DNA of 64,000 bases from Elusimicrobiota bacterium (GTDB taxonomy: Bacteria > Elusimicrobiota > Elusimicrobia > UBA1565 > UBA9628), in NCBI GenBank assembly GCA_033875325.1, contig JANRKA010000041.1, forward strand, positions 3,995-67,994. The letters run 5' to 3'. The first letter of the stretch is position 1; each line of letters opens with the position of its first letter. A program made the position numbers and the translations under genes. A model generated the notes under the pieces. It had not been told where the DNA came from. It saw only the letters and a program-made list of their open reading frames with translations, and ran no database searches. Below are positions 19,935 through 56,463 of this stretch, in pieces.

Positions 19935-20014
19935 TAAGCTGGGGGACAGGCTCCCAGCTTATCGATAAGCTGGGACCCAGGTGGAAACAAGCTTGGAGCC
20001 TGTCCCCCAGCTTA
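19935..20014. repeat. 80-bp nested inverted-repeat element (REP/MITE-like) at the end of the giant gene
   Basis: Perfect 20-bp terminal IR TAAGCTGGGGGACAGGCTCC (19935-19954 / 19995-20014) and a perfect 24-bp internal palindrome TCCCAGCTTATCGATAAGCTGGGA (19952-19975); includes the giant gene's TAA. Confidence 0.8.
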
Positions 20015-32000: not shown

Positions 32001-35000
32001 ATGACGTCGATGTCGGAGACCGTGGAGGTGGAGAGCTTCGGGAACAGGACGTCGTCGTCCACGGCCTCGATGACGAGGTTGCCCGTCGCGGCGCTGGGCA
32101 GGACCGCGGTGAACGGCGCCTGGCCGAGCGCGAGGTTCTGCGGCGCGTCCGTGGTCGCGTACGCGTCGTTGGTCAGCAGACGCACCTGGCGGCCGTCCAC
32201 GGCGCGGTTGTTGTAGAGGTCCACCGCGCGCACGGTGACGGTGTAGGTCTGACCCGCGGTGAGCGTGGAGAGCGCGCCGCTCTTGCCCGTGACCGTGCCT
32301 TCGACGAAGGACTCGCCGGGCGCGGTCGCCAGCAGCCCGATGGGCGTGTTGGCCTGGACCGGGATGGAGACGACGGTGTCGGTCGCGTAGGCCGTGCCCG
32401 TGGCCAAGGTGTCCGAGGCGCGCAGCTGCAGCCCCGCCTGGCGCGTGACGGGCGGGAAGGAGAAGGTCGTCGTGCCCGCCACCAAGGTGCGCTGGTACGG
32501 GTTGGGCGCGAGCGCGCGGCCCTGGATGTTGGCGTCGTTGAGGAAGTCCAGGCGCACCAGCGGCATGACGACGTCGGCGGTCAAGGGGATGAACGGCGTG
32601 GTGCCGGCGACCACGTTGAAGAAGGAGTCGGTCACGTTGACGCGGATGGTGGTGGTGACGCCGGCGGTCAAAGTCGCCGGCGCCGCGCCCGTGCGGCCGC
32701 CGCTCGTCGGGTTGGAATCGAACGGCGCCCGGCCCGGCGCCGCGACCTGGCCCTCGACGAGCAGCTGCAGCTTGGCGGGCGTGGACCACCACACGCGGAA
32801 CGGGTCGGGCGTGTAGTAGGTCGAGGTCACCGCGGGCAGCACCGCCGCCTGCACCTGCACGCTGTGGGTGCCGGCCACGACCGGGTGGAAGGCGAACACC
32901 GTGGTGCCCAGCGCCAAAGTCTGCGTGTAGGACGAGCTGTGCTGGTCGGGGAACAGGTTGGCGCGCACGGCGAAGGCGACGGAGACGTCCGGGTTGTAGA
33001 AGGGGTCCACGGCGTAGACGGTCACGGGGTAGGTCGAGCCGGCGAAGGTCTCCTGCGGCGCGCCGGTCTTGCCGAAAGGCGCGACCGAGAACTTGCCGGG
33101 GACCTGGGTCTCGCCGGGCAGCAGCGCGATGAGGCGGTCGGCGGACTGGCCGTTGACGGTCACCGCGCTCGCCGGATTGGAGGCGTTGGGGAAGATGCCC
33201 GAGCCCGTGGACTGCACGACCTGGGCGCCCGCCGTGACGAAGGCCCAGTCGAAGGTCGTCGAGCCGGTGAACACCACGGCGCGGTCGTTGCCGGGCGCGA
33301 AGGCGCCGTTGTTGGGGTCGGTGTCGGTGACGAACACCGAGGTCGTCGAGTCCAGGAACAAGTTGTAGAAGTCGTCGGTCACCTGCACGCAGTACTTGAT
33401 GGTCTGGCCCGCGACGAACGCGCGCGCCGCGCCCAGGCGGCCCTCGGAGCCCGGGGTCACCACGCCGGGGCCCGGGCGCTGGCCGGGGCCGCCCGTGCAG
33501 GTGGAGTCCGCGTCCGCGATGAGCTGGACGCGGGTCGCGGGGCCGCGGTGCGTCGTGTAGTTGAGCGTGCCGAACAACGCGGGGTTGTCCGTCTGCTGGA
33601 CGCGCAAGGTGCGGGCGCCCGCCTTGCGCATGCGGATGGTGAAGGTGTGGGCGCCGTTGTCGCCGCCGAGGCCCGTGGTGAAGGTGTAGGTCGAGGGCAG
33701 GCCGTGCAGGCTGTCGGAGACGGCGTCGTCGTCCATGCTCTCGGGGCCGCCCGAGCCGTCCACCATCGCGAAGTTGACCTGGCCGCTGTAGCTCGACGCC
33801 ACGCCGCCCGCGCCGCCCGGCCCGTCGCGCGCGGTGACCGTGATCTGCACGTCGTTGCCCACGGTGTGCGGGTTGGACGAGACGACGATGGAGAAGCTTT
33901 GCGCGATGCCCGAGATGAAGAAACGCGGGCCCGAGGCGATGACGCTCTGCAGGTTGCCGGCGTTGTCGCGCACGCGCGACCAGGTGATGTAGGGGTCGCC
34001 GCGCACCCAGCAGGGGACGCCCAGCGGGTTGGGCGCCGGGCAGGCCAGGTTCGGGTACTGCCAGTTGCCGAAGTTGTCCTGGAAAGACGCCGCGATCCAC
34101 GGCGGGCTGGCCACGAGCGGGGCCGCCGCCGTCCAGGTGGAGCCGTCCCAGAAGTAGCCGGTGTCGTCCCAACCGCCGAAGAGGATGGGGCCGCCGGTGA
34201 CCAGCGGCGCGGTGTCGCGGAAGACCATGAGCTCGGGCGCGGCCTGGTGCCAACCCAAGGTCGGCGCGACGCCGGAGCCCGTGCCGTTGATGCCGGAGGT
34301 GAAGCCCGGGTCCGAGGAGTTGCCCAGGACGACCTTGGTGTCGTCGTAGGTCGTCAAGTTGGAGGGGTTGGTGACGCTCGAGACCGGCTCGGCCGTCTCG
34401 AAGAGGAAACGCGCCGCGCCGGCGGCGGTCTGGTTGTTGCCGACCGAGTCGGTCGCCGACGAACGCACGACGTAGTGGCGCGAGGGCGTGTAGGCCAACG
34501 CGCCGTTGGTGAAGGTCCACGAGGTCGGGAAGAGATTGGCCGGCAGCACGGGCAGCCACACCTGCGGGCCGACGGCGAAAACCGTGCCGTCGAACCAGCG
34601 GTTGGTCTCCTCCTCGTAGATGGACACGGCGACGGCGGACACCGTGCTGTCCGCGTCGGTGGAGGTGCCCGAGAGCGTGGTGAGGCTGTTGTAGGCCGAG
34701 TCGGGGATGGGCGCGGTCGGGCCGGAGGTCGGCGGCGCGTTGTCGAAGCGGAAGGTCCGCGTGGACAGGCTCGTCTGCTGGTTGCCCGACGCGTCCACGG
34801 CCAAGGTCGTGATGAAGAAGGTCTTGCCGTTGAAGGTGTCGTGCGTGCCCTCGCGCCACGCGAAGTTCAGCGTGCCGGGGTTGGCGAAGTCGGGGTTCTG
34901 CGCGGAATCGTAGGCCCAGGGGTTGCTCGTGCCGAACGGCCCGGCGGCGCCCGCGACGGAGTAGAAATCGTTGGGGTTGCCGGCGCTCCAGTGCGGCGCG

Positions 35001-38000
35001 GCGGGGCTCCAGTAGTAGGTCGTGGGCCCGGTGACGTACCACATCTTGACCTTCACGTCGGCGACGTTCGAGGTCACGTCGGACGAGGTGCCCGCGATGA
35101 CGTTCATGGACGAGAAGGTCACGCCGTCGGTCGCCGGGTAGGTGATGGCCGAGAGCGGCCTCGTCGCGTCGAAGCTGAAGGTGGACGCCGCGTAGGAGAA
35201 GTTGCCCGCCGCGTCGGTGACGCGCGTCTCCAACCGCAGCTGCGCGTTGCGGTCGGGCCAGGCCACCAAAGACGAATCGTAGCGCCAGGTGAACAGGCCC
35301 GCGGCGCTCGTGGAATCGAGCGCCACGTTCCACAGGTCCGGGAAACCCGGGAAGCCGGAGTTGACCCAGCCCGTGCCGTCCACCCAGTACTGGTTGAGCG
35401 CTATGTCGTGCACGCGCACCGCGGGGAAACCCACGTTGAACGCGCCGGGCGCGGAGTCCTGGGCCGTGCCGGTGACCAGCGGCAGCGAGGCGTAACGCGC
35501 GCCGTTGGCCGGCAGCACGACGCCCGCGACGGGCGAGGACACGTCGAAGCGGAAGATGTTCGTGGTCAGCGCGGTCTGCGTGTTGGCCGCGAAGTCGAAG
35601 GCGCGCGAGGCGATGTCGTAACGCTCGCCGTCCTGCAGGCCCGAGGGCAGGTTGTTGGGCGGCGGCAGCTGGGTCGCCTTGGTCCACGGAGAGCCCGCGG
35701 CCGCCGTCAGCCAGGAGGCCTCGTTGGAGCAGTTCGCCGACCACGCGCCGCCGTTCCAGCAGATGTTGTCGGAGACGCGTTTGATCTGGACCTGCGTGCC
35801 GGCCACGCCCGAGGCCGCGCCACCGGCGTCGGAAGCCGTGCCGCCGATGCTGGGCAAGGTCTTGCCGTAGGAATTGTCGGCGGGCGTGGTGACGCCCGAG
35901 GCGGGCACCGAGGTGTCCCACTTGATGGTGTTGGCCGCGCCGATGCCCTCCAGGCCCGTGGCCCCGACGGCCTTGGGCAGGATGTTGTAGTTGCGGCCCG
36001 TCGAGGCGGGGAGCGCCGGAGGCGTCGCGGTGAAGGTGTAGTTGGGCAGCGAGCCCGACAGGACGGTCGGTCGCCACACCGCCGCGGTCGCCGAGAAGGT
36101 GCCGGTCAGGTTGTCGTACCACATGCCGGTGTCGGCTTCCTGGTAGGCCACCGACGCCGCGGCCACGCCGAAGGTCTCGGACGCGGTTCCGGCCACGCCG
36201 AAGGCCGTGTTGCGGTTGCCGCCGACGGCGGGCAAGGACGGCGGCTGGGTCAGCGCGACGGAGGGCAGGCTGGTGTTGAACGCGAAGGTCACCGTCGAGA
36301 TCTGCGCGGCCGAGCTGAGGTTGCCCGCGGGCACGGCGTTGTCGCGCGCGCGCACCCACACGCGGTAGGTGAACTGGGTCGTCAGCGGCGGCGCGTCGAA
36401 CTGCCAGACCCCGCCGAGGAAGGAGCCGTTGCGGTCGCCGCCGGTGATGGGGTACCAGATGGGGCAGCCCGACAGCGTGAAGGTGCCGCCGGCCACGGCG
36501 CCGTTCCAGCAGCCCGCGTTCGGGCTCAGCTCGCCGATGGCGACCTCGATCTGGGAGGCGGCGCTGACGCCGGCCAACGCGTCCACCGCCGTGCCGCGGA
36601 TAACGGAGAGGCTCGCCAGCACCGAGCCGTCGGTCGGCGCCTGGAAACCCACGGCGGGTCCGACGAGGTCCACGGTGAAGGTGGACGCGCGCGCCGGGTT
36701 GAAGAACGCCTCGGCGTTGCCGCCCGAGAAGGAGTCGTCGAGGCCGGAGGTCGTCGCGTAGTACGACGACCCGTGCTGCAGGCCCGTCGGCAGATTATTG
36801 GCCGCCGGCAGGTTGCTGACGAGGGTCCAGCTCGTCTGGTGCACGAGGACGCCCTCGCTGTTGGTCATCTGCGCGGCGCCCGGCACCCAGCTCGCGCTGT
36901 CCCAGCGCCAGCCGTCGGAGAGGCGCACGAGTTGCAGGCGCACGTCGGTGACGACGCCCGGGTTGGAGCCGGCCACGTCATTGGCCGTGCCGGACATGGT
37001 CGCCAGCGAGGAGATGGTGCTGAAGGCCACCGGCAGGCGCGTGTCGGTCACCGGCGGGTCCGTGTCGTAGATGACCGTCTGCGAGGAGTAGGTCGTCGCG
37101 TAGGTGCCCGCCTTGTTGCGCGAGCGCGCCTCGATGCGGTACTGGGTGCCGCTCTGGAACGGCGTGCCGCTCGACAAGGTCCAGCTCGTCCACAACGGCG
37201 CCGAGACCGAGGCGGCCTGCAGCCACGCCGTGTCGGCGGCGGCGGGCAGGATGTCGAAGAAGCCCGTGCCGTGGTTGTAGTAACGCGTCAGCCCCGTCTG
37301 TTGGAGGATGCGGACCTGGACCTGGTCGAGCGCCGTGGGCACGGCGTCGGACGCCGTGCCCGCGAGCGTGGTGAGGTCGCGGTGACGCGGCTGCGCGGGA
37401 TAGGTCACGCCCACGACGGGCACGGCCGTGTTGTAGGTGAAGGTCACCGAGCTCGTGCCGGCGACGAAGGCGGTCTGCTCGTTGCCCGCCGCGTCGGTCG
37501 CGCGCGCGGCGACGAGGTAGCTCACGCCCGTGGCATAGGGGTTGGGGCTCGCCGTGAAGGTCCAGGCGCCGGGCGCGCCGAAAGCGGGGATGAAGTTGGG
37601 GCAGGGAGCGGTGAAGCCGCCGCCGTAGACGTAACACAAGCCCGTGCCCAACCGCTCGATGGACACGGACACGGTCGAGACACCCGCGGCCGCGAGCGAG
37701 CCCGCGCCGTCAGGGTCGGGGTCCGAGGAGGAGCCCGTGAAGGCGAAGTTGGCGCTCTTGAAGCCGCCCTGCACGGGGTCGCTCACGGTCGCGACCGGCA
37801 AGGACGAATCGAACAGGAAGCCGAAGTTCTGGACGCGGTTGTTGCCGGCGCGGTCGGTGGCCGAGGAGCGCAACAGGTAAGCCTGGCCGTCCACGAGGCC
37901 CGGGTAGGTCCAGCCCCAGGTGTCGGTGCCGCCGAAGGCGTAGGCGCTCGTCGCGAAGAACACGGGGTCGGCGGCGGTGAAGGTCGCGCCGTTGTACCAA

Positions 38001-41000
38001 TGGCCCGCGCCCGCGCCCGAGGACAGCGCCAGGCCGAGGCGGTCGATGCCCGAAGGCGCGTCGAACGCCGTGCCCGCGATGGAGGCCAGCAGCGGGCTCA
38101 GCGCGCCCGCGGACACGGGCGCGCTCACGCCCGCGGTGGGCACGATGACGTCGTAGGTGAACGAGGCCGAGGAGAGCGCCGTCTGGGCCACGGACGCCAG
38201 GTCGGTGGCCGAGGAGCGCACGATGTACTGATGCGCCTGCGTCCAGGGCTGGACCGCGAACGGGAAGGACCAAGTCGCCGTCGAACCCTTCGCGCCGAAC
38301 CACGCCGGGCAGGCCGCGGTGAAGGTGTTGAGAGCGGAGTCGTAGCAGTTGGGCGAGGCGATGGAGGCGTCCTGGATGGAGAGCTGCACCGTGGAGACCG
38401 CGATGTTGTCGCCCGAGACGCCCGACACCGAGGGCACGGAGTTGCGGAAGGCGCCTTCGACGGGCGAGAGCACCGCGGCGAAGGGCGGCGTCACGTCGTA
38501 GGTGAAAGTCGAGCCGCGCGGCGACTCGAAGAGCTCGGCGTTCCCCCCGCCCGCGGCGTCGTCTATGCCGGAGGTGGTCAGGTAATACGAGGCGCCGGAG
38601 GTCATGTCGAGCGCGGTGGGCAAGTTGACGGCGGCCACGCTCCAAGTCGGGGCCGCGGGCGTGACGCCCTGCGGGCCCGCCATGGTCTGCAGAGCGGCCT
38701 GCCAGGTGCCCGCGCCGGGAGCGCCGTCCCAGGTGTAGCCGTCGGAGAGGCGCTTGAAGCGCAGGCGCATGACCGGCACCGCGCCGGGGTTGCCCGCAGG
38801 CAGGTCCGAGACAGTGCCGTTGACCGCGGTGAGCGCGTTGATGACGGCGCCGTCGCCCGGCGTGGTCACGCCGCTCTGCGGCGCCAGGTTGTCGTAGACC
38901 ACCACCACGCTGGAGTAGGGCACCGCGTAGGTGCCGGCGCCGTTCTCGGAACGCGCGACGAGGGTGTAGGTGGAGCCGTTGACGAAGGGCACGGCGCTGG
39001 AGGCCGACCAGTTCAGCCACGAGCCCGCGTGCGTGGCGTTGAACCAGGCCAGGTCCCCGTCGGGCTGGTTGAAGGCCAGGCCCGACGCCGGGTTGGCGAA
39101 CTGGCTGCCCGCCTCGCTGAACACGCGCAACTGGACGCGCCGCACGAAGTTGGGCGCCGTCGCCGCGGCGGTGCCCGCGATGGTCGCCAAGGTCAACTGG
39201 CCGTGGCGCGCGGGCGGGTTGGTCGGCGCGGTGACGCCCACGAGCGGGCGGGTGGAGTCGAAGCCGAAGTTGATGGCGGCCGCGGGCGTCTCGACGTTGC
39301 CCGTCGGCCCACCGAACGCGCGGTCCTCGGCGAACACGTCGAGGGTGTAGGTCAGGCCGTCCATCCAGGTCAAGGTCGGCGTGCTGGACTGGTAGCTCCA
39401 GGAGTTGGAGGCGGGCAGGTAGACGGCGGTGCTCGCGGTGACCGCGGCCACCCAGGTGCTGACCAGGTGGTCCCAGTAGAAGTTGTTGTCCAGGCGGCGC
39501 AGGCGGAAACGCACGCCGTTGGTCAGCTTCACGCCCGCGCCCACGCTGGTCGCCAGGAAGTCGGTCGTGCCGCCGCCCAAGGTGGGGTAGGTGGAGACGA
39601 AGGTCCCGTTGACGGGGAAGCTCACCGAGGAGGTCGGCGAGGACAAGTCGATGTAGAAGTTCACCTGCGGCGGCGCGACTTCATCGATGCCGGCGAGGTT
39701 GACGCCGGTGGTCTTGACGGTGAAGGAAGTGTTGTTGAGCGTCGCCCAGCTCGGGAGGACCTCGCCGGGCGGCGGGTAGCCCCAGTTGCCGGCCGACGGG
39801 AACAAGGTGCGCGTCGCGGTCGCGGCGCTGACCGTGCAGTCCACCCAGCCGAAGGCCGCGTCGCCCCAGCACAGGTTGCCCGCGCCGTCGAGACGGCGCA
39901 GCTCGAACTTGATGGTGACCGTGTTGGCGTTGGCCGTGCCCTGCATGCCGTTGAGCTGGTTGTAGCGCGTGAGGCTCGCCGGCGCGGTGATGGCCGTGAC
40001 GGCCGGCGGCGGCTGGAACTGCAGACGGCGGCGGCCCGGGGTGCCCATGGACGGCAGCGGGAACTGCGTGTTGCCCGCGTTGTCCACCGCGCTCGAGATC
40101 AGGATGTAGAACGAGAGGTTGCGCAGGTTCGAGTCCAAAGACGCCGAGGAGAACGCCCACTCGGCCGTGCCCGGGTTCCACACCGCCTGGTTCCAGATGG
40201 GCGGGCCGCTGGGCGGGCCCCAGGCGCCGCCCGCGGCGTCCCAGTATTTGCCGGCGTTCGGGTCGCCGGGGTTGGTCGCGTCGTTCTGGATGCTGAGGTA
40301 GACGAAGCGGACCGCCGAAGAGGAGGCGTTGACGAGCGGGTCGGTCGCGGTGCCCGTGATGGACGCCAACGAGGTCGTCGTCGCGTCGTCGGGACCCGGC
40401 GGGAACACGACGCCGGAGGTCGGCGCGGTGCCGTCGAAGGTGATGGTGGACACAGCCGAGAAGTAGTTCGGGAACGCGCCCGCGTTGCCGGCCTGGTCGG
40501 TGGCGATGACGCGCACGGCGTATTGGCGGCCGTTGGGCGAGGGGTCGTCGGCCACGCGGCTGATGTTGGCGCCGACGGGGAAGTTCGTCACGACCCAGGA
40601 GCTCTGGTGCGTGGTCGCGGGGAAGCTCACGGGGATGCTCTGCCAGTTCGTCCCGTTCCACCAGCGGCAGGAGCCGCCGCAGTTGGGCACGGGGTGCGCC
40701 GGGACGGTGAGGTCCGAGACGTCCTCGATCTGGATCAGGACCTGGGAGAGGCCGGAGGTGATGCCGCCGCCCACCACCGGCTCGGTGAAGGAGCCCGAGG
40801 AGAGGCTCAGCGTGTTCGTGCTCACGAAGGGACGGTCCGGGCGCAGGATGGTCGCCGTGGGAGTGGAGCGGTCCATCACGAAGGTCGTCGTGGAGTAAAC
40901 GGGGTCGGTGAACGCGAACAGGTCGCGGGAACGCGCCACGACGCGGTAGCGCCAGCCGTCCTCGAACGCGCCCTCGGGCAGGCTCGCGGGCTGGCTCTGG

Positions 41001-44000
41001 AACGGGACGATGGTCTGCGCCCCGCCGAGCAAGGTCGTGGGCACGTTGAAGCCCTGGTCGCCGCCGACCCAGGAGATGAGGTCCCAGTAGAAACGCGTCC
41101 CCACCGAGTTCTCGCGCGACACGGCCAGCTGGACCTGGGCCATGCCGATGCCCGGCGTGCCCGCGGTGCTCTGGTCATCGGCCGTGCCCGCGATGGGCGT
41201 GGCCCCGGCGGTCAGCGAGGAGTTGTTCGCGGGATGGGTGAAGCCCGAGACCGGCGCGAAGAAGTCGACGCGCAGGTCGTGGCCCGGCGTGACCGGCTCG
41301 GCCCCGCCGCGGTTCTCGTTGCCCGCGCCGTCGATGCCGCGCGCGTAGAAGGTGTAGGTGCGCGGCTGGGCGCGCGAAGCGATGTCGGCCGAGAGGGCGG
41401 CGTCGACGAAGGTCCACGACGAGACGTGGACCTGCGCGGGGCGCCAGGAGGCGCCGCTGAAGCCCGCGAACGCGGTCCCGTTCCACCAGTTGAGCGTCAG
41501 GTTCTCGCGCACGGCCACGAACATCTGGGCCAAGGTCGAGGTGCCCTCGGCGTAGGTGCCCGAAGAGAGGACGAAGGCGGTGGCGTAGGAGTCGTCGACG
41601 GGCGTGGAGATGGTCGTCGTGGGCGCCTGCGCGTCGTAGCGGAACTGGTAGGAGATCTCCGGGCTCTCCTGGTTGCCGGTCTTGTCCACCGAGCGCAGGG
41701 TGACGGTGTAGAGCTCGTTGTCCTGCCACGACGGCAGCACGTCTCCCGCGGGGCTCGACGGCGGGTACTGCCAGGCCGCGGGATCGGCCGTCGTCGTGGA
41801 CACGCGGCGGTAGTTGACCACGGGCGTGAACACCGTGCTCCCGTCCCAGTAGTCGCCGTCGGACTCGCGGATGGCCATCTCCACCCGCAGCAGGCCGGAC
41901 TTGACGCCCGCCCCGTTGAACCAGTCCACGGCCGTGCCGGAGAGCACGGTGGGCTGCCCCAACGGGTAGTAGGGCTGGCCGGGCACAGCGATGGTCGTCG
42001 AGGGCTTGTTCACGTCGTATTTGAAGCTCACCACGGGCGAGACGGCGCTCTGATTGCCCGCCAGGTCGAAGGCGCGCGCCGTGAGCAGGTACTGCTTGTT
42101 GTCGATCCAGGTCGGCGCGGCGAAGGTCCAGGGGTTGGTGGCGTTGACGACGAGGTAGGTCGAGGCCGCGACGACCCAAGCCGAGCCGTCCCACTTCAGG
42201 TTGTCGGTGGTGTCCTCGATCTGCACCTCGACGCGCTGGGTGCCCGCCGGCGCGTCGTTGGTGCCGCCGCGCAGCGTCACCAGCGGGCGCCCCGCGCCGT
42301 AGTCGGGCATGGACACCATCGGCGTGGAGATGCTCACCGTCGGGCCGACGCGGTCGAGGACGACGTGGCTGGTCGTCGGCGTCTCGAGGTTGCCCGCGTT
42401 GTCGCGCGCCTGGATGGCCAGGCCGTACGAAGTGCCGTCGACCTCCGTGATGGTCGGCGCGGAGTGGCCGGGGATGGTGCCCGGATAGGTCCAGGCGACG
42501 GTGCCCGTCGAGCCGGTGAGCTGGACGGGCAGCTGGGTCTGCACGCCGGCGCCGCCCCAGCCCGAGCCGGTCCAGTAATGGCTCGACACGCCCGCCACGT
42601 ACCACACGCGCAGGTAATAGGTGTTGGCCAGCGACAGGTCGGCGTTCGAGGTGCCCGAGATGGCGTCGAGGTTCTGGATGAACGAGGCCGCGGGCGGGTT
42701 GCTCACCACGGAGACCGGCGGGGTGTCGTCGACGATGAAAGACACCAGGCTGACGCCGGGCGTGAAGGTCGTGCCCTGGTTGCCGACGATGGCGCCGGAG
42801 GCGTTGCGCGCGCGGTCGCGGGCGCGCGCCTTCGCGTGATACTGCCGGTCGCCGACCCAATCCGCGCCGCTGAAGAACTGGCGCCAGGAGTCGGTCGCCG
42901 TCGCGACCTGCCATGAGGCCGACTCCACGGTGTTGGACGAGAACTTGGTGCCGTTGGACGAGGGCGGCAGGTTGATGACGCCGGTGTAGTAGTAGCTGGT
43001 GTTGCCGAGCAGGTACCACATCACGGTCTCGACACCCTGCAGGGCGTCGGCGAAGGGGTATAGACCCACCTCCGCGTCGGCGGCCGTGCCGGTGATGGCC
43101 GAGCCGCCGGTCAGGGCGGTGGAGCGGTAGGCCTGGCCGGACACGGGCTGGGTGAAGCCGGCCAGCGGGGCCGCCTTGTCGATGAACACGACCCGGCTCG
43201 ACGCGGGCACGGAGTAGAGGCCCTGGAGGTTCCCGGCGAGGTCGCGCGCGCGCGCGGTCAGGCGGTAGCCCTTGCCCGAGACCAGCGCGCCGGTGAGGCT
43301 CGCGTTGGCGTAGCTCCACGGAGCGGTCCCGACGACCGCGTTGAACGACGAGAGGCTCTGGTTGAACGCGCCGCCGTCGGACCAGTACTGATCGTTGTGC
43401 GGCTCGTAGATCTCGAGCTCGACGGCCGCGACGTCGGACTTCAGGTTCGAGCCGTAGACGCCGTCCGGGTCGAAGGAGGTGCCGGCGATGGTGTCCAGGC
43501 TCAGGTAGACCTGGCCCGAAGACGGCTGCACGAACAGGCCCACCGGCGTCGAGGTGTCGAAGACGAAGGTGAAGTTCGCCATCGAGGCCTCGACGGTCTG
43601 GTCGTTGAGCGCCTTGTCCGAGGCGTGCGCGTACACGGTGTAGTCGGCGCCGTCGAGCAGCGCGCCGTTGGCGAGCGTCGTCGTGCTGAAGGTGAACAAG
43701 GTCGTGCCGCCGAAAGTGCCGGGGCCGAACTCCGCCACGCCGGCCTGGAAAGCGGAGCCGTTCCAGTAACGGTTGTCGGAGTTGCTCTTGAGGCGGAACT
43801 TCACGCCCGACTGCGCGATGGACTGCGCGACCACCGCCCCGGGGTCGGTCGCGGTGCCGGCGAGCGCCGGCAGGACGCTCAAGCAGGCGCCCGCGCCGGC
43901 GCACGGCGCGCCGCTGGGCGAGGTGACGGCGGTCAGCGGCGTGATGCGGTCGAAGATGAAGGTCCGCGAGTCGGTGTTGCCGGGGATGCCGGAGGCGTTG

Positions 44001-47000
44001 ATGGCCGTCGCCGCGACGCTGTAGGACGCGTTGGCCACGGCGTAGGGGCTCGTCAGCGACTGGCTCCAGTTCTGCGGGGAGCCGGGCAGGACGTTGACCT
44101 GGTTGACGACGAGCGCGTCGCCCCAGCTCGTCGTCGCCTCGGTCCAGTAGCTGGCGGGCTCGGTGAGGCGCCGCAAGACCAGCTCGACGCCGTTGGCCAG
44201 GCGCATGTTCACGCCGGTGCCGATGATGGTGTTGACGGACGCGGCGGAGTTGGGGCCGTAGTGCTGCAGGTCCGGCGGCGCGGGCTGGGTCAAGGTCAGC
44301 GTCGCGTCGGGCGACTGCAGGTAGAAACGCACGTCGAAGGAGCCGTGGGGCGCCTCGGCGTTCCCGACGGCATCCACGGCGCGCGCCGTGACGGTGTAGG
44401 TCGAGCGGTTGTCCCAGGCCGTGGTCGTCGCGTCGTAGATCCACTGGCGCACGCCCGGGGACACTACGGCGCCCACGACGCCGGAGGAGAGCTCGACGGG
44501 AGAGGCCTGCCAGGCGTAGCCGTTCCAGTATTGCCCGATGTGGCAGGTGCCCCCGGAGCAGGCCTCCTCGAAGATGGTCAGGCGCACGACCGCGGGCTGA
44601 CCCGGGGCCGTGTCGGAGGCGGTGCCGTAGATGGCGGTCGCGCCCGCGTTGTAGCCGACCGGCGCCGTGGCGATGGACACGGGCGGCGTGGTGTCGAAGA
44701 CGAAGGTGTTCGTGGAGAGCGCGACCTCCTGGTTGGTCGCGCGGTCCATGGCCCGAGAGACCACCTTATAGACGCGGTTGGAGGTCAGCGCGCCCGTGGG
44801 CAGCGCGAAGGACCAGGTTCCCGAGGAGGTGCCGACGAAGGTCGCCGTGGACCACACCGGCGAACCCGACGCGAACGCGGTCCCCGTCCACCAGGTCGTG
44901 GTGACGTCGATCTCGGCCACGGCGACGGTCACGCTCGAGGCCAGGAAGCCGGCCTCGAACTCGCGGGTGCCCGGCGCGCAAAGGCCGGGGTAAAAGGCGC
45001 AGAAGCGGTCTTCGGCGGTGCCCACGACGGTGACGGCCGCCGAGCTCACGAAGCCGCCGTCGGCGGGCCAGCTCACGCGCGAGACGGGCGTCGAGAGGTC
45101 CACGACGAAGGTGTAGGTGGAGTAGGCGGTCTCGACGTTGGTGGCGGTGTCGAAACCCTGAGGGTTGACCGCGTAGCGGTAGCCGTCCTCGAAAGCGCCC
45201 GCGAAGTTGGAGAAGGACCAGGGGTTGAGGCCCACGCGGCTCGTGGCCAGGAAGCCCGGGTCCGCCCCCCACGAGCCGCCGAAGAGGTCCCAATAGGTGC
45301 CGTCGGACTTGCGGATCTTCAGGCGCACGTCGTTGACGCCGCTGGGGCTGAAGCCCGGGTCCGCGGCCGTGCCGGTGACGGTCGCCGGCGCGATGGCGCT
45401 GTAGAGCGGCGGGTAGGTCACGCGCGTGGTCGGCGCGGTGTTGTCGTAGTTGAACACGCGCGCGGGCGTGCCGTCCGCGTTGAGGTCCGCGTCGAGTTGG
45501 CCGTTGCTGGGCGTGGCGCTCGCGTTGCCCGCGCGGTCGAAGGCCCGCACCCAGACGCGGAAGGCGTGCGCGTCGGCGTTGACCAGCGGCGGGAAGGCGA
45601 GGTTCCAGTTGGCCAGGCCGGTGACGGTGCGCCACTGCGAGTATTTGGCGGGCGAGCTGTCCCAGTCCGTCGCGATGACGCCGGTGACCGAGCCGTTCCA
45701 GTAGGACTGGTCGTCGAGCTTGAGCAGGATCTGGACGGTCTGCAGGCCCGACGCGCCGGTGAGCTCGTCGTTGGCCGTGCCGAGAAGTTGGCCGAGCGAG
45801 GCCGCGTTGAGATACACCGAGTTCCCCGGGGCCGTGATGGTGGCCGTGGGGATGGCCGTGTCGTAGCGGAAGGCCGCGCCCGCGTCGACGGCGGCGGGGT
45901 TGAGCTGGCGGTTGCTCGCCTGGTCGAGGGCGACGGTCACGGCGCGGTAGGTCGCGCTCGACTCGAGCATGCCCGCGGGCACGGCCGTGGACCAGGCCAG
46001 GGAGGTGATGCCCTGCACGGGCGTGCTGGAGACCTGGGTCCAGGCCGGGCTCGGCGGCGGAGGCGGCGGGTCGGAGATGCCCGGGTCGAAGGAGGCGGTG
46101 CCCCAGTTCCACCAGCCCACGGGCGCCGCGCCGCCTTCGGTGTGGCGCACGGCGAGGTAGGCGCGCAGCACGCCGGAGACGCCCGCGCCGGTCTCCAGGT
46201 ACTGGCCCGAGAACTGCGGCAGGGCGTTGACGCTGCCGCCGTTGGCGGGCACGGCGACCGTGGAGGTCGGACGGCTGACGTCGTATTTGAAGACCTGCGT
46301 CTGGCCGGCCGCCGAGCCCGTGGGCAGCAGGCCGACGGAGAAGTTGACGGTGTTGCTCGCCACGTCGCGCGCGTAGACGAAGACGGTGTAGTTCACCCCG
46401 TCGGCGAGTTGGGCCTGCAGCTCGGGCGCGGAGTAGTCCCAGGTCGCGTGGCCGGCGCGGTAGACCTGGCTCGACCAGTGGATGGTCGACAAGCTCACCG
46501 AGAAGGTGCGCGTGGCCTCGCTCCACCACAGGTCCTGGGCCGCTCCGGAGGCGATGGCGACCCACACCTCTCTGACGCCCGAGGGCACGGCGCCGGGGTC
46601 GCCCACCGAGCCCCAGGTGTGCGTGCTCAGACGCGTGGACTCCGCGTTGTTGGAGTAGGGCGGCAGCGACGGGGGCGGGACGGGGAAAGCGATGGAAAGC
46701 GTGGGCGCGGTGTCGTCGTAGCGGAAGGTGTGGTCGCCGCCGCCCGGGGCCGCGCGCACGTTGCCCGCGCGGTCGGTCACGCGCAGGTAGAGGCGGTACT
46801 GCTGGTCGTTGGAGAACGCGCCGGCGAGGTCGTCGTAGCTCCAGGGCTGCACGCCCGCCGTGCCGGAGATGGTCGCCGTCGAATAGTGGTCGTTGAGCGC
46901 CGTCCACGAGGAGCCCGTCCAGTCCTCGTCGGGGCCGCCGCCCACGCGCTGGATGCGCAGCTCGACCTTGGAGAGGCCGGCCAGGTCGGCGTCCGCCGTG

Positions 47001-50000
47001 CCGCTGATGAGCGCCAGCGCCGAGACGTTGGCGCCCACGGGAGCGGTGAGGCCGACCGTCGGATTGGTGTCGTCGACCACGAAGTCCACGATGTCGGTGC
47101 CCACGGTAGCGGGAACGCTGACGTTGCCCGACACGGTGCCGTCTTTGAGGAAGGTCGCGTCCTCGGCGCGCGCCTCGAGCCGGTATGCCGTCGCCGTGCC
47201 CAGCCAGCTGATCGCGCCGATGGAGGTCCACAAGGTGTCCGTCGCCGGGAACCAACCGGAGTTGCTCACGCCGGTGCCCGAGGAGAACTGGGTCGTCTGC
47301 CAGTACCAGGTGTCGGCGCCGGCCGTGTAGGAGAGCCGGATGTCCACGCGCCGGATGCCGGCGTTGAACGGCGCGCCCGGATCCGTCGCGGTGCCCGAGA
47401 ACGGGTTGGTCACGCCGGAGAGCTGGCTGCCGCGGTAGGCGTCCCCGTGGACCGGGAAGGCGATGACGGCCGAAGGCGCGACGGCGTCGAACAGGAAGGT
47501 CCGCGAGGAGACGCCCGCGACGAAGGAGGCCTGGGAGTTGCCGGCCACGTCCGCCGCGCGAGACAGGATGGTGTAGTAGGTGCTGAAAGTGGCCAGAGCC
47601 GAGTTGAGGTCCGCGTTGGTCAAGGACCAGTCGGCCGCGGGCGTGCTGGAGGTCGCGATCCAGTACGGGCAGGTCTCGGTGAAGAACAAAGTGCCCGGGT
47701 TGTAGCACAACCCGTTGCGCAGCGAGCGCACGGACGCGCTGATGGCGTGCACGAGGAAGTCGTCGTTGGCCGTGCCCGCGATCTGCGGCGAGCCCAAGGT
47801 CCGCAGCGGCGTGGCGCCGTTGGGCAAGGTGATGCCGGAGGTGGGCGCGGTCACGTCCCAGGTGAAGGCGCGGTTGACGGTGACGCCGTTGCCCGCGCGG
47901 TCCTTGGCGATGAGGGTCGCGGTGTAGGCGCGGCCGGGCTCGAAGGCCGTGGAGTCGGTGAAGCTCGCGTGCGTGACCGCGTAGGTGTTGGACGGCAAAG
48001 CGCCCACGTTCGGGACGAGACAGGTCGCGTCCACCGAGGTGAGACAATCCGACGCCGAGGCGGTGAAGGTGGAGACCGTCGGGTTCCAGTACTGCGGGCC
48101 GACCTCGGTGCGCTGCAGGCGGAAATAAACGGTCTTGACCGCGCCCACCAGGGCGTCGGCGTCGTCGCTCGCCGTGCCCGACAGCGCGGGCAAGGAGCGC
48201 TTGAAGGCGACGTCGGGCATGGTGACGCCGGCCAGCGGGACGCCGTCGTCGATGTGGTACTCGCGCGGGCCCTTGGGCGGCGCCTCGGGGCCGGGCGTGG
48301 CGCGCGACTCGATCTGGTACTTGTTGAGGCTGGTGTAGCTCGCGGGGTAGATGCTGAACGCCCAGTCGCGCCCGGCCAACGGCGTCGAGACCCAGATGTT
48401 GAGCGCGCCGGGCTGCCAGACGGAGCCGTCCCAGGTCTGGGGCGCGCCGGTGATGTCCTGGACGCGGATCTGCACCCCGGTGGCGGCCTCGTTGACCGTG
48501 CCCGAGAGCGTCGCCAAGGTCGCGCGGAAGTGCGGCGTGGTCGCGTCGGGCTTGAGGATCTGCGAGGCCGGGCTCGGCGCGGTGAAGGCGATGCGGTTGG
48601 TGCCGTTGGCCGGCGCGGACGGGCGGTCCTGGATGTTGGAGGCGTTGTCGTCGGGCGCCGACAAGACGTGGTAGGTGACGCCCGCCGCGAAGGTCGGCGA
48701 GGAGGCTCCGGTCGCCGTCCAGTTGACCGGGCTGCCGTTGTCGGTGGTCACGGACACCCAGTAGTTCGACGCGAGGCTCGGAGCCTCCGGGGGCACCGCC
48801 GCGTCGGGCAGGTCGAAGAGCAAGGTCGTCTTGTTCCACCAGTTGGCCGGGGAGGCGCGGTAATAGGCCACGAACACGCGGCGCACGCCCGCCAGGCCGG
48901 TGTCCGTCGCCGTGCCGGTGATGGCCGTGACGGACTCGGGCGAGGAGCCGTTGGTCGGGAAGGTCACCACCGAGGTCGGCTTCGCGAAGTCGGCGGAGAA
49001 GGTGATGCTCGAATAAGTGACCTGCAAACCCGTCGCGCGGTCGATGGCCCGGGCCTGCGCCTCGTAGGTCAGGCCCGAGGTCCAGGCGGCCGAGCTCAAG
49101 GTGAAAGTCCACGGGCCCGTGCCGGAGACGGTCGCGTTGTTCCAGATTTCAGGGCCGCCCGCGACCCAGGAGCCGTTGGGGCCGGCCGAGAGGTCCAGGT
49201 AGAAGCCGTCGGAGGGCCGGCGCACGCGCACCTGCACGAAGTCCACGACGCCCGCGCCGGTGTCCACGGCGTTGCCCGACACCAGCCCGGACTGGGAGAT
49301 GAAGCCGCCGTTGGAGGGCGAGGTGATGGTCGCGGTGGGCCGATAGGTGTCGTAGACGAAGGGCGCCGTGGACCACTGGATGACCGAGACGTTGCCGGCC
49401 TGGTCCACGGCCTGGGAGCGCAGATCGTAGGCCGTGTTGTCGGTCCACTCCGCCAGCGGGGGCATGTTGAAGACCCAGTTCTCGCTGTCGGAATCGTAGG
49501 TCCCGTCTTGCGCCGCGGCGGAGGGCCAGGGGTTGGGCTCGGTAGCCGACCAGGCCAGGCCCGTCCAGTAGTCCGTCGTCGCGCCGATGAAGCGGCGCAG
49601 GTTCACGCGCACGGCGGCCAGACGGCCGCCCGTGTTGTCGATCGAGGATCCGGAGGCGGTGGCGAAGATGCTGCGCGTGTGCAGGCCCGCGGCGGGCGAG
49701 GTGACGGAGGCCGACGGGCGCTCGGGAGTGGCCTGGTACTCGTCGAGCGTGAAGGTGACCGTCGAGGGCGTGACTTGGACCGAGTTCGCCCAGTCCTTCG
49801 CGCGGACCACCGCGCGGAAGGTCTCTCCGGAGTTGCCGGCGATGAAGGGCACGGCCTGCGACCATGTGCCGCTCGAAAGGCCCTGATGCGGCGTGTAGGT
49901 CACGGCCTGCCAGTAATTGGGCGCGGTCGCGGGGTCGGCGACGGCCGCCGCGGTGTCCCCCGCCTCCCAGCCGGGGAGGTCCCAGCGCCAGGTCTGGTTG

Positions 50001-53000
50001 AGGCCCTGACGGTAGACGTGCACGTACACGGTGTTGACGCGCCCGCCGAAGAGTCCGGTGCCCAGGTCGGAGGCCGTGCCCGTGAGCGTGGCGAGAGCGT
50101 TGACGAAGGAGCCGTTGGCCGGCGCGGTGAACGACGCGGTCGGGCGCTCGACGTCGAAGAACACGGGCGTGGGCGGCGCGCCGGCGCCCGCCACGCCCGG
50201 GGAGGGCTGGCCGGTCTCGTTGCTCGCGAAGTCGCGGATGCGCGAGCTGAGCTCGTAGCGGATGCCGTTGGTCCAACTCACGCCCGAGCTGTTGTAGCTC
50301 CACAGGCCGTCCGAGGGGCTGTCGCCGAGCAGGAACCACACGACGCTGCCCGAGGGGTTGAACTGGTTGGCGGGACCCGCCACGCCGTTGGGGTCCCAAT
50401 AGAGGGAAGTGCCCTCGCGACGGATGAAGATCTCCGCCTGGTTGGGCAGGCCGGGCACCGCGTCGGACGCCGTTCCCGAGATCGTGTTGATGGAGGTCAC
50501 GGCCGTGCCGCTGGAGGGCACGGAGACGTTGCCCAGAGGCGCGGTCACGTCCCAGGTGACGGTGCGCGGCGTGCCTTCGGCCTGGTTGCCCACCGAGTCG
50601 CGCGCGCGGGGGATGAGCTGGTAGTCGCGGCCGTCCACGAGGCCGATGGTGAGCGGCACCGTGTAGGACCAGGGCGAACCCTGGACCGTGGTCGGCGTGT
50701 AGGTCGCGAAGGCCACCCAGGCGTCGGTGAAGCTCGAGTACCAGCGGCACGAGCCGTCGGGCGTGCCGCCGGCGCAGGACCCGCCCGCGCTGCTGGCGAT
50801 GGCCACCTCGGTCAACGAAAGCGAGGAGAAGTCGGAAGCCGTGCCCTGGATGGTGACGAGCTGGTTGATCTGGCTCTGGTTGGGCACGGTCACGGCCGAG
50901 AGCGGGTTGACCGCGTCCACGCTGAAGGTGACCGAGTTGACGCCCACCGCGAACAGGTTCTCCACGTTGGCGAGCTTCGTCACGCTGCCGCAGTCGGTGT
51001 CGGCGGTGTTGCCGCCGTTGTCGCAGGCGCGGCTGTAGAGGACGTAGGAGATGCCCGAGTCGCCCACGGAGAACGCCGGGCTGGTGAAGGTCCAGGAGCT
51101 GGGGTGCAGGGACGCGTCGGGCCAGTTGGCGGGTTGGGCGCCCCAAGCCGCGCCGCCCAGCCAGAACAGGCCGTCGGACTGGCGCTGGATCTGGTACTCG
51201 ACGCGGTTGACGCCGCTGTGTTTGTCGTAATAGCCGCCGTGGAACACCGTGGCCCCGGGCCCCAGCGTGCTCAGGTGCGTCGGCGAGGCGATGGCGTTGG
51301 TGGGCTTGACCACGTCCCAGTAGAAAGTATGCGAGCTCACCAGCGGCCCGTTGAAGTCGAACTCGTGCGGGAACAACGCGTTGGCCGCGTCGCGCGCGCG
51401 GTCGCGCGCGGTGACGCGCACGCTGAAGGAGGAGCCGCTGATCTCGTCGTCCGTCCATGGCACGGGCCCGCCGGTGGCGTTGGCGGCCCAGTCCACGTCG
51501 TTGAAGCTCAGGCTCCAGCCCTGCGAGAAGGTCTCCGCCGGGTCGGCGAAGGTGGTGTTGCCGTCGCGCGTGTCCAGCGCGTTGATGGCGGTCGCCACAG
51601 CGCCCCAGCTCGCGCCGTTCCAATACAGGTGGTCCTTGTGGCGGTAGATGCGCAGTCGCACGCCCTCGAGGAAGCCGTTGCTGTTGTCGGTCGCCGTGCC
51701 CAGGATGGAGGTCAGGGTCGTGCGCGTGGAAAGGCCCACCGGCGTGGTCACGCCGGCGGTGGGCGTGGTGTTGTCCACGCGGAAGACGCGGTCGGTCGAG
51801 GCCAAGGTGTAGTTGCCGGCCGCGTCCTGCGCGAGCGCCGACAGCGTGATGCGCGCGTTGTTGAACACCGTCGAGGCGAACGGATAGGTCCACGCGTTGC
51901 CGCCCGTGGCGTTGATCCAGAACGGGCAGCCCTGGTCGAAGGCGGCGCCGCCCCAGCAGTTGTTGGGCCCGAGGTCGCGAAGCGACACGGAGCTGACCCT
52001 CACGGGGAAGTCGTCCGTCGAGAGACCGCTGACCTGGTTGAAGCCCCGGAACACGCCCTCCGTGACGCCCGGGAAGCCGATGCTCACCACCGGAGTGGTC
52101 TCGTCCACCACGAAGGCGTTGGTGGTGCCGCTCACGCGCCAGTTCGCGGCCCTGTCGGCGACCTGCAGCGAGAAGTAATAGGTGGCGCCGTCGGTCCACG
52201 CTGACGACGGGAAGGTCGAGCGCCAGATGCCGGTGCCCGGGTTCCAGCAGGTCAGGCCGCAGGCGACGGTGGAGAAGTTCACCACGGACCCGCCCCAGGT
52301 CTCCGTCCCCCGGTTCCAATACTCGGTGGTACCGGAGATGATGCGGCGCAGCTGGAACTGAAGACTCTCGACTTGTCCCGGTGAGATGTCGCCGGCGGTT
52401 CCGGAGAGCGTGGCCAGTTGGAAGCCGCGATAATAGCCGTCGAACGTCGCGGCGTTGAGGTTCTTGGGGTGCTGGATGACGCCCGTGGGGTTCTGCGTGT
52501 CGAAAACGAAGTCCACCTGGGTAGGAGTGCCCTGAACGTTGCCCGCGTTGTCCACGGCGCGCACGCGCAGACGGTAATCGCGCGTCGTGGTCCAGATGCC
52601 CCCGACGCCGGCTATCTGCCAAGGGTTGGCGCCGGTCGCCGTGTTCCACACCTGTCCCGCCTGCCAGCCCGTGCCCACTCTGTAGTACTGCAGGTTGGAG
52701 AGGTCCTGTATCTCGACCTCCACGCGGGCGGTCTCGGACACGTTGTTGCCCGTCCCGTCGGTCGCGGTGCCGGTCAGCGTGCTCAGCGAGGAGTAGTGGC
52801 GTCCATCGAGCGGAGCCTCGACCACGGCCGTGGGCGCCGTGAAGTCACGCGTGTAGGCCAGCCCGAAGACGCCGCCGGCGTGCTGGTTCGTGTTCCAGGT
52901 CCAACCGGTGTAAAGCGTGGGTTGATAGGCGGCGTCGAAGCTCGCCCCGTTCCAGCGATAGACGCGGATGTGGCGGTTGGCGTTGGTGACGGCCACGAGC

Positions 53001-55615: not shown

Positions 55616-56278
55616 TTAGCGCCTCCCCCGCCGCCCGGCGGCGGCGCGCGCGGCGCGGTCGGCGCGTGTGGCCTTGGCGGCCGCGGACACCGAGGCGTCC
55701 TTGTCCCCGGCCAAACGCTCGAGCGCCTTGTCGGCGGCGGCGCCGGGGTGGCGCAGCAGGGCGCGCGCGGCGTGGCGGCGCACGCCCGGGTCCGCCTGCT
55801 CGGCCGCTGCGGCGAGGGCGACGGCGGCCTCGGTGGAGCGGGAGACCCCCAGCGAGGAGGCGGCGGCCCGGCGCACGTCCAAGTCGGCGTCCCCGGCCAA
55901 GGCGGCGATGAGGGCCCGGGCGGCGGCGCGGTCGTCGAGGCGGCCGAGCTCCTGTGCCGCGGCGACCCGCACGATGGGGGCGGTGTCGGAGCGCAGGGCC
56001 CGGGTCAAGGTCGGGAGCGCCGCGACGGGGTCGGCCGCGGCCAAGGCGCGCAGGAGCTCGTAGCGCACCTGGGGGTTGGACTCCATCGCGGCGGCGGCGT
56101 CGAGGTCCGCGGCGGAGGGAGCGCCGCGGCCGCGGCGCACGGCCAACTCGGCGGCCTCGCGGCGCTCCGCGGCGGTGCGGCCCCGCAGGTTCGCCTTGGC
56201 GCGGGCCGGGCGAGCGGGCTCCGCGGCCCAGACGGACGCGCACGCGCACGCCACACAGAACGCCGCCAGGGGCAGCAT
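55616..56278 (-). CDS. Exported HEAT-repeat protein
   Basis: Signal-like MLPLAAFCVACACASVWAAE (start could be at 56335); repeats 'VR.AAA..LG'; stop lies 3 nt before the giant gene start. Confidence 0.82.
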   Translation of the reverse strand: MLPLAAFCVACACASVWAAEPARPARAKANLRGRTAAERREAAELAVRRGRGAPSAADLDAAAAMESNPQVRYELLRALAAADPVAALPTLTRALRSDTAPIVRVAAAQELGRLDDRAAARALIAALAGDADLDVRRAAASSLGVSRSTEAAVALAAAAEQADPGVRRHAARALLRHPGAAADKALERLAGDKDASVSAAAKATRADRAARAAAGRRGRR

Positions 56279-56463
56279 TCTATATCGCGCGCGCGTAATG
56301 GAAGAAGAAGACGCAGTACGCCCGTAAAGGTTCATTCGAAGCCTTTAAGCTTAACGGGTCGTAAGTTCGGCCGGGTTACGGAAGTATGACCGGGACCGGG
56401 CCGCCGCAACGGATCGCTTTCAGCATGCCTCCAGGACGGAGGCAGGGGGGGTTGGAGAACGCC

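Follow-up and report, generated by a model that had tools for sequence, protein, structure and literature searches.

A giant gene with an array of 49 Ig-like units

The window analysed here is a stretch of 64,000 nucleotides (nt) from an Elusimicrobiota bacterium (assembly GCA_033875325.1, contig JANRKA010000041.1, positions 3,995 to 67,994). Its subject is one giant gene whose product carries a long array of immunoglobulin (Ig)-like units of the kind found in the Salmonella enterica protein SiiE. Similarity between these units recurs at an offset of 11, and we consider how this periodicity arose and what it may mean for the mechanics of the protein. The gene and the array lie as follows.

20012-55612, minus strand: single giant open reading frame (ORF), 11,866 amino acids (aa)
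33911-52846, minus strand: array of 49 SiiE-type bacterial Ig-like units, identified by a hidden Markov model (HMM) built from the protein itself, unit boundaries, consensus, AlphaFold2/Foldseek comparison and a SiiE profile match

Behind a signal-peptide-like N-terminus, the ORF encodes 8 repeats (aa 46-896), the 49 Ig-like units (aa 923-7234), at least nine units of a second repeat type (~100 aa per unit, aa 7374-8508) and at least nine of a third (aa 9725-11226). The last ~100 aa match FlgD_ig in Pfam and have weak matches to models associated with the type IX secretion system (T9SS) in NCBIfam, in the manner of a T9SS C-terminal domain. The Ig-like region forms the extender stalk of the protein, a giant surface protein secreted by this Elusimicrobia bacterium.

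Units were called with an HMM grown from one unit of the giant protein and scanned along the whole protein, which returned exactly 49 tandem units plus one weak outlier. This is the count reached in the initial annotation of the window, and the recomputed unit starts (unit 4 at 51775, unit 12 at 48580, unit 15 at 47488, unit 23 at 44296, unit 26 at 43180 and unit 34 at 40015) agree with its coordinates to ~30 nt. The spacing of 4.25-4.35 kb that it gave for equivalent units likewise agrees with recomputed offsets of 4281-4308 nt. The units are 110-162 aa long, share 16-40% identity with one another and follow the consensus D..xP...GTAxD...W...RAxDxAGN...F.f., in which the Trp is nearly invariant. 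Three Asp of this consensus were scored, namely the linker D of D..xP, the D of GTAxD (column 30) and the D of RAxDxAGN (column 101), and units without them are called Asp-less below.

All 49 units match the one self-built HMM, and a Pfam scan revealed no alternation of domain families. Over the whole protein, Big_3_3, Big_13 and Big_3_2 score 44.7, 38.3 and 35.0 bits and pass their gathering cut-offs of 27, 27 and 23.3, yet no single stretch is significant alone. An AlphaFold2 model of unit 10, built with the 49 window units as alignment, is all-beta with 8 strands and a predicted local distance difference test score of 92.3. Searched against the PDB with Foldseek, this model retrieved E-set Ig-like folds, the best being the C-terminal domain of sulfite oxidase (TMq 0.69), with further matches to an S-layer protein, fibronectin type III (Fn3)-like modules and CARDB.

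Similarity between units recurs at an offset of 11

To measure similarity along the array, all 49 units were aligned against each other by Smith-Waterman (SW), the consensus-likeness of each unit was removed by an additive fit, and unit order was permuted. Offset 11 had the top mean residual (z=3.15, p=0.0024), with a familywise p of 0.19 after a crude max-statistic correction; in units 1-35 it reached z=4.4 (familywise 0.0009). Because the single-sequence stripe over all 49 units was not significant familywise, single sequences were replaced by an orthologue profile for each unit, and all pairs were compared with hhalign, first with one profile set and then with a deeper set holding more homologues. 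The first set gave z=4.9 at offset 11 (familywise 0.0024), and z=7.0 in units 1-35, a value matched in 0/20,000 permutations. With the deeper profiles, the enrichment along the +11 diagonal that the initial annotation had expected of an 11-domain super-repeat rose to z=5.6 (familywise p=0.0003), or z=7.5 in units 1-35 (again 0/20,000 permutations). Offset 11 is the sole significant diagonal in the deeper matrix, where every other offset has z<=1.8; offset 5 had reached z=3.0 in the first set because of the pairs 36/41 and 37/42.

Two further measures bear on the same offset. Among 13 reciprocal-best pairs in the deeper profiles, five lie at +11 (2/13, 15/26, 16/27, 20/31 and 23/34), where ~0.4 would be expected. 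Unit length is itself autocorrelated across units 1-36, with r=0.48 at lag 11 (p=0.005, familywise 0.07) and r=0.56 at lag 22. One could still hold that no super-repeat exists and that the shared motifs are chance resemblance among 49 related domains, given the familywise p of 0.19 for single sequences, the refuted link between units 4 and 15 and the wide occurrence of a Cys-pair motif (both described below). Such coincidence is scarcely credible, however, in the face of the familywise p from the profiles, the permutations of units 1-35, the enrichment of reciprocal-best pairs at +11 and the length autocorrelation, which is partly independent evidence. The +11 stripe is real.

Extent of the duplicated blocks

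Relative to the 11-unit register, the array divides into these blocks.

48581-52846, minus strand: block A, units 1-11, a weaker copy of the 11-unit super-repeat
44297-48580, minus strand: block B, units 12-22, whose first unit is the Asp-less unit 12
40016-44296, minus strand: block C, units 23-33, whose first unit is the Asp-less unit 23
38894-40015, minus strand: start of a fourth copy, units 34-36, with unit 34 Asp-less; the +11 signal ends after pair 25/36

Block figures are mean hhalign residuals in the deeper profile matrix, with p given by comparison. Blocks B and C have a mean residual of 32.9 with 11/11 pairs positive (p<1e-5); 15/26, 16/27 and 20/31 are reciprocal best and 15/26 is the strongest of all +11 pairs. 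An 11-unit block duplication relating units 12-22 to units 23-33 is well supported. For blocks A and B the mean residual is 13.4 (p about 0.01), carried by 2/13 (reciprocal best), 3/14, 6/17, 8/19, 9/20 and 10/21, and a duplication relating units 1-11 to units 12-22 is moderately supported. Comparisons with units 34-44, taken as block D, give 2.7 for C and 3.4 for A, neither significant, and 6.8 for B (p=0.07), with 12/34 ranking 1/2. At the start of the fourth copy, 23/34 is reciprocal best and 24/35 and 25/36 have residuals of +18 and +8; from pair 26/37 onward the profile matrix holds no +11 signal.

The 14 consecutive +11 pairs from 12/23 to 25/36 are all non-negative, in strict register. 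Position i is closest to position i of the other block in B-C and partly in A-B, and this is not seen in A-C or most of C-D. The stripe consists of one clear block duplication, a more eroded copy that is either earlier or faster-diverged, and the first units of a further copy, so that about 2 to 3.3 copies of the 11-unit block are detectable. The initial annotation had proposed three block duplications. Of these, B-C is clear and A-B moderate, whereas the fourth copy is limited to 23/34, 24/35 and 12/34, and A and C are not significantly alike.

The sequence motifs that had been listed for 15/26, 16/27 and 3/14 are present. A kinship of units 4, 15 and 26 had also been read from a shared strand; it holds for 15/26, but the 4/15 link is refuted by a profile residual of -21 (rank 47 of 48 in both rows), and 4/26 is weak (+13.7, rank 5/5). 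Similarly, the Cys pair noted for units 3 and 14, C(W/Y)...C(P)(F/Y/I)W, exists, but it lies mid-unit in units 3, 14, 34, 38, 40, 43 and 45, so it is not specific to 3/14. It is absent from the other units, marks a subclass independent of the +11 register (3, 14, 38 and 40 group together) and may be an intradomain disulfide. Examples are the following.

51776-52105, minus strand: unit 3, with Cys pair
47489-47857, minus strand: unit 14, with Cys pair
38153-38497, minus strand: unit 38, with Cys pair

Duplications at other offsets are also present.

36671-39259, minus strand: younger duplication at a 5-unit offset, units 36-37 (38498-39259) copied as units 41-42 (36671-37429)
49727-50155, 48581-48991 and 45863-46282, minus strand: units 8, 11 and 18, a tight paralogue group

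Pairs 36/41 and 37/42 are the strongest paralogue pairs in the array (SW 213 and 235, hhalign residuals +126 and +138, ~42% identity in hhalign, tree support 0.98 and 0.93) and lie beyond the stretch that the initial annotation assigned to the super-repeat. A duplication of the whole block 36-40 as 41-45 was considered and rejected, as 38/43 and 39/44 are near 0. Units 8, 11 and 18 are related at offsets of 3, 7 and 10 (SW 137-178; tree support 0.955 for 11/18). Since this group falls outside the 11-unit scheme, single-unit duplication or conversion also occurred.

Age of the duplication and block turnover in the family

The giant protein was used as query, qN denoting its unit N. Its homologues comprise seven long proteins, of which the three with a named source are all from Elusimicrobia metagenome-assembled genomes, fourteen shorter proteins and three genomic loci (L001-L003). 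Their units map one-to-one and collinearly onto query units, with orthologue scores of ~200-680 against ~100 for the best paralogue; collinear order is found in L001, L002, L003, P0002, P0003, P0006, P0007, P0009, P0016, P0019 and P0020. The best tblastn segments of L001 and L002 are 83% and 77% identical to the query segment, and the order of the 49 units in these loci is that of the query. P0009, at ~50% identity, retains the ordered series q11-q35, in which the two copies stand 11 units from each other, and the core order from q16/q19 onward is kept in L003, P0002, P0003, P0006, P0007, P0016, P0019 and P0020. A FastTree phylogeny of 211 units (query plus assigned orthologues) recovered all 49 unit groups as clades; it resolves unit orthology and is too weak for deep paralogy. 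DNA repeats are absent at the 4.3-kb offset, and elsewhere only motif-level matches of 30-70 nt at 60-75% identity occur; the 11-unit event is therefore old. It predates the divergence of the known homologues, and each unit has since formed its own orthologous lineage.

These observations also bear on whether the +11 similarity reflects later gene conversion or recombination between units, or convergent adaptation of positions, rather than block duplication. The strong off-diagonal pairs 8/18, 11/18 and 14/38 and the patchiness of the signal along the +11 diagonal would fit such processes. They do not account for the 14 consecutive pairs in strict register or the shared insert lengths behind the lag-11 length autocorrelation; moreover, DNA-level identity tracts are absent at that offset, and homologues at 35-50% identity conserve the members of these paralogue pairs separately. 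We consider conversion or convergence very unlikely as the source of the stripe.

Block duplication recurs across the family, with sizes of about 2, 3, 4, 5, 11 and 16 units, and unit numbers vary as well. P0004 reads q18-27 and then q17-35, an extra 11-unit block (+11 z=13.7) whose copies share 35-63% identity and in many cases resemble one another more than the query. In P0013, q16 recurs after 11 units (SW 351), with only 3 matching +11 pairs before the protein ends. Stripes appear at +16 (z=9.9) and +5 in P0005, at +5 in P0006 (z=9.8), and at +4 (z=11.0) and +8 in P0007. In the label strings of P0015 and P0018, units recur with periods of ~3 and ~2, a pattern read without a statistic. P0001 is without q19-35, that is 17 units, not a multiple of 11.

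The region of query units 36-37/41-42 is expanded in P0006 by recent 5-unit blocks (SW up to 619). Before q16, the family has two very different versions, the N-terminal blocks of P0002, P0003 and L003 on one side and query-like units on the other. P0013 (units 1-23) has both, running from a P0002-like block through q16-21 to query-like q11-17, an arrangement that points to mosaic recombination, either of diverged alleles or of paralogous blocks. The reading frame changes inside the array in L001 (at about 6050 and 19400) and L003 (at about 10000, 14550 and 20840), with unit order still collinear. Frameshifts introduced in assembly or sequencing are the most likely cause, ahead of pseudogene formation. 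The N-terminal fragment of the L001 gene that results from such a shift is P0011.

Four units have lost three Asp together

All three scored Asp are present in 36/49 query units, and four units have none of them.

48251-48580, minus strand: unit 12, without the linker Asp, GTAxD Asp and RAxD Asp; the same in P0001_12, P0005_17 and L002
43952-44296, minus strand: unit 23, without the three Asp, D101 replaced by N (A-I-N-A-S-G); kept in 5/5 orthologue units and L002
39650-40015, minus strand: unit 34, without the three Asp, D101 replaced by N (G-V-N-L-A-G)
35918-36268, minus strand: unit 44, the fourth unit without the three Asp, 10 units after unit 34

The first three had already been recognised as lacking the linker Asp, with GT(x)N-type motifs in place of GTAxD, and we confirm this, the motifs being GTVNE, GTGVN and GTANA; unit 44 is new to this analysis. 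Copies B and C and the fourth copy thus each begin with a unit (12, 23 and 34) that has lost the three Asp together. Over 360 units, Asp occupies column 30 in 288 and column 101 in 315, and the D-x-A-G-N motif is completed by A at column 103 in 265, G at 104 in 227 and N at 105 in 275. In Asp-less units, the Asp of column 101 is typically replaced by Asn. Loss of the linker Asp and of D101 is coupled (Fisher p=6e-5 in the query; p=2.5e-23 over the 360 units, which are not independent).

The state is conserved between species. Orthologues of q12, q23 and q34 in P0001-P0007 are without the linker Asp in 12/12 units, and orthologue pairs agree in state in 150/162 cases for the linker and 149/162 for column 30. 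For unit 34, 5/5 orthologues are without the linker Asp and have N at D101, while Asp at column 30 is kept in 2/5. For unit 44, P0001_27 and P0002_40 retain the column-30 Asp and the L002 unit shares the GTASET of the query; among all units, unit 23 is the best residual partner of unit 44 in the first profile set. Asp-less units are placed as follows.

Query: units 12, 23, 34 and 44; gaps 11, 11 and 10
P0002 and P0003: units 1, 8, 19 and 30 (P0002 also 46); gaps 7, 11 and 11 (then 16)
P0006: units 8, 19 and 30; gaps 11 and 11
P0004: units 6 and 17; gap 11; unit 28 partly Asp-less
P0007: units 1, 6, 10, 14 and 31; gaps 5, 4, 4 and 17
P0005: units 17 and 33; gap 16

The linkers of the Asp-less query units have 3.75 Pro per 20 aa against 2.47 (n=4). 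Pro-richness as a mark of these linkers was set aside because the difference is small and n is 4.

Comparison with SiiE and RTX adhesins

The closest known system to the query stalk is SiiE of Salmonella enterica, with 53 bacterial Ig-like (BIg) domains and Ca2+-stiffened linkers. A profile of the 49 units finds 2yn3_A as its best solved relative (E=2.7e-7), in an alignment that runs from the conserved Trp over D-x-A-G-N to the next linker Asp; the legend of Fig. 3 in PMC7493085 identifies 2YN3 as the SiiE tri-tandemer. As described in passages of PMC6272769, 43D, 97D and 117D make up the type I Ca2+ site of SiiE at the interface between domains, the motif 97D-x-A-G-101N joins the two Ca2+ site types, and Ca2+ chelation raises kinked conformations. 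The same passages describe BIg50 as an atypical domain without most of the conserved residues.

Both proteins have a long single-chain array of Ig-like beta-sandwiches with D-x-A-G-N, a conserved Trp and a conserved linker Asp. By homology with SiiE, the three Asp would form an inter-domain Ca2+ site that stiffens the rod; the stalk as such works like a SiiE-type extender. From the joint loss of the three Asp and this homology, Ca2+-free junctions are predicted at the start of units 12, 23, 34 and 44. A periodic kink, suggested in the initial annotation, is made plausible by the Asp lost together in these units, although only D-x-A-G-N and the linker Asp align to SiiE.

The query stalk also differs from SiiE. 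Its units are longer (110-162 aa) and more diverged from one another, each is individually conserved between species, and the host is an uncultured environmental Elusimicrobia bacterium. Units predicted to lack the Ca site recur about every 11 units here, and no such periodicity appears in the available passages of the SiiE literature. Limited literature searches likewise returned no description of periodic Ca-site-less units in bacterial Ig arrays, only muscle work for bacterial or adhesin Ig-like super-repeats, and only general surveys for giant Ig-like Elusimicrobia proteins.

A broader likeness exists to the extender regions of the giant RTX adhesins MpIBP, MhLap and AhLap; according to passages of PMC7493085, each of the four RTX-adhesin extender tandems with a solved structure has Ca2+ in its linker, where the ion has a rigidifying role. 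However, RTX/HemolysinCabind models of Pfam and NCBIfam have no match in the giant ORF, no type I secretion genes lie among the neighbours of the gene in the window, and the C-terminus is of the FlgD_ig/T9SS type. Given the lack of RTX repeats and type I secretion genes there, the protein is not an RTX adhesin.

Comparison with titin and nebulin super-repeats

The initial annotation called the array titin-like. As in the 11-domain (and 7-domain) super-repeats of the titin A-band and the 7-module super-repeats of nebulin, a unit here resembles the unit one period away more than its neighbours, throughout B-C and partly in A-B; the period is also 11, and in passages of PMC3859903 and PMC1553488 the origin is likewise multi-domain block duplication. 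The titin super-repeat, as a passage of PMC3859903 describes it, combines two domain types, Ig and Fn3, in a fixed order and fits the structure of the thick filament. In contrast, the query units all belong to one family, no periodic partner is known, and only about 2 to 3.3 copies are detectable. The titin chain 8q6t_I gives a profile match (E=5e-5) without an individually significant stretch, and there is no specific homology beyond the generic Ig/Fn3 fold. Because all 49 units are of one family without an Ig/Fn3 pattern, the resemblance of units i and i+11 is titin-like by analogy only, and the closest solved relative in sequence is the BIg domain of SiiE.

Multi-domain block duplication is the common mode of repeat growth, as set out in passages of Bjorklund, Ekman and Elofsson 2006 (PMC1553488). 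The query family fits the pattern described there, with off-diagonal stripes, duplications in the middle of arrays and block sizes that vary between family members. Those passages stress eukaryotes and treat bacterial Ig-like repeats briefly, whereas a single bacterial giant-protein family here combines an old, conserved 11-unit block with younger, lineage-specific blocks.

Origin of the 11-unit spacing

Our analysis makes it probable that an ancient multi-domain tandem duplication of an 11-unit block gave rise to the periodicity, leaving behind junctions, predicted to be Ca2+-free, at intervals of about 11 units. The block duplications would stem from unequal recombination within the array, a process that would be general in the family and would yield the blocks of about 2, 3, 4, 5 and 16 units in other members. 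The stalk would then be a series of Ca2+-stiffened segments of ~11 units each, separated by Ca2+-free junctions, with a segment length of roughly 36-45 nm when scaled from SiiE (175 nm per 53 domains). These junctions may be hinges, or they may be stiffened differently by their somewhat Pro-richer linkers.

Several observations weigh against this explanation. Offset 22 is not significant in the profile matrix (z 1.4-1.8), and the +11 diagonal itself contains negative or null pairs, including 17/28 and, within A-B, the negative 4/15 and 11/22. A simple three-copy tree would predict A-C similarity at least equal to the weaker of A-B and B-C, and A-C is not significant (mean residual 4.1, p=0.17). 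The initial annotation had expected units i and i+11 to be sisters in a tree; this is the case for 2/13, 15/26 and 20/31 but not for the other 14 of 17 mutual sister pairs, so the expectation was weakly borne out. Strong pairs also lie off the diagonal, at +5 (36/41 and 37/42), +10 (8/18) and +7 (11/18) and as 38/40, 1/25 and 14/38, and therefore single-unit events or conversions also shaped the array. Chimeric junction units, expected from unequal crossing-over, are not supported in P0004_10, which is ambiguous between q27 and q16 in both halves, or in P0013_16, which is a plain q21. Finally, the match to 2yn3 is confined to the C-terminal half of the unit; D30 lies outside the alignment and is presumed to correspond to 43D.

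Alternatively, the 11-unit period may itself be selected, as a segmented ruler or as a match to a periodic partner, with joints every 11 domains in the manner of titin on the thick filament. Several features of the homologues point this way. Asp-less units 8, 19 and 30 stand 11 and 11 apart in P0002, P0003 and P0006, even though the N-terminal block of these proteins has otherwise been replaced and is not recognisably orthologous to that of the query. The lineage-specific extra block of P0004 is exactly 11 units (q17/18-q27) and keeps Asp-less units 6 and 17 in register, the doubled q16 of P0013 is a possible second 11-unit insertion, and the Asp-less state is conserved in orthologues. However, Asp-less units are 4 apart in P0007 (6, 10, 14) and 16 apart in P0005 (17, 33), and the query has 10 as its last gap. 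In addition, homologues duplicate blocks of other sizes, the 17 units missing from P0001 do not fit the period, and no partner protein is known. Recurrent 11-unit events would also arise without selection from homology-driven unequal recombination between existing +11 paralogues. We therefore regard a selected period as unlikely. The related proposal of a segmented rod, in which runs of ~11 Ca2+-locked domains (36-45 nm) alternate with conserved Ca2+-independent joints at units 12, 23, 34 and 44 and selection keeps the spacing, is similarly doubtful. The ruler length or helical pitch raised in the initial annotation is unsupported, because relatives vary in block size and unit number.

Three features set this protein apart from the usual description of giant bacterial surface proteins, namely monotonous strings of near-identical extender domains whose number sets reach. 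Here 49 domains are individually conserved between species, the array bears the imprint of an old 11-domain block duplication, and block boundaries are repeatedly marked by domains that have lost the predicted inter-domain Ca2+ site. Should these junctions prove to be hinges, or joints stiffened in another way, mechanical segmentation would be a designed feature of the stalk. More broadly, the family shows array evolution in bacteria by block duplication of variable size, about 2 to 16 units by lineage. Were the 11-unit spacing selected, it would be a bacterial counterpart of the titin/nebulin ruler principle, one that might determine reach, the geometry of folding or the register with a lattice in the envelope. 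If the spacing instead records nothing but history, it offers a clean but ordinary case of an evolutionary process already known.

Genomic surroundings and other regions of the giant gene

Outside the Ig array, the giant ORF occupies 20012-33910 and 52847-55612 of the window. The 8 N-terminal repeats are Trp-rich and possibly form a propeller; Pfam has no match for the N-terminal, second or third repeat arrays. HEAT-repeat proteins are encoded on the same strand directly on both sides of the giant gene (18803-19897 and 55616-56335), and a CHASE2-adenylate/guanylate cyclase gene (16704-18806) lies downstream of the giant gene and the HEAT-repeat gene. Other neighbours are ordinary chromosomal genes (hut genes, purA, xerC/D-like, topA and dprA). 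The window is ~70% G+C. On the plus strand, GC skew is +0.12 to +0.16 throughout the giant gene (20000-52000), against ~0 to 0.04 in most of the flanks and ~0.10 just before the gene, so the coding (minus) strand is C-rich. The Thr/Ala/Pro/Ser-rich repeats probably cause this skew through their amino-acid or codon composition.

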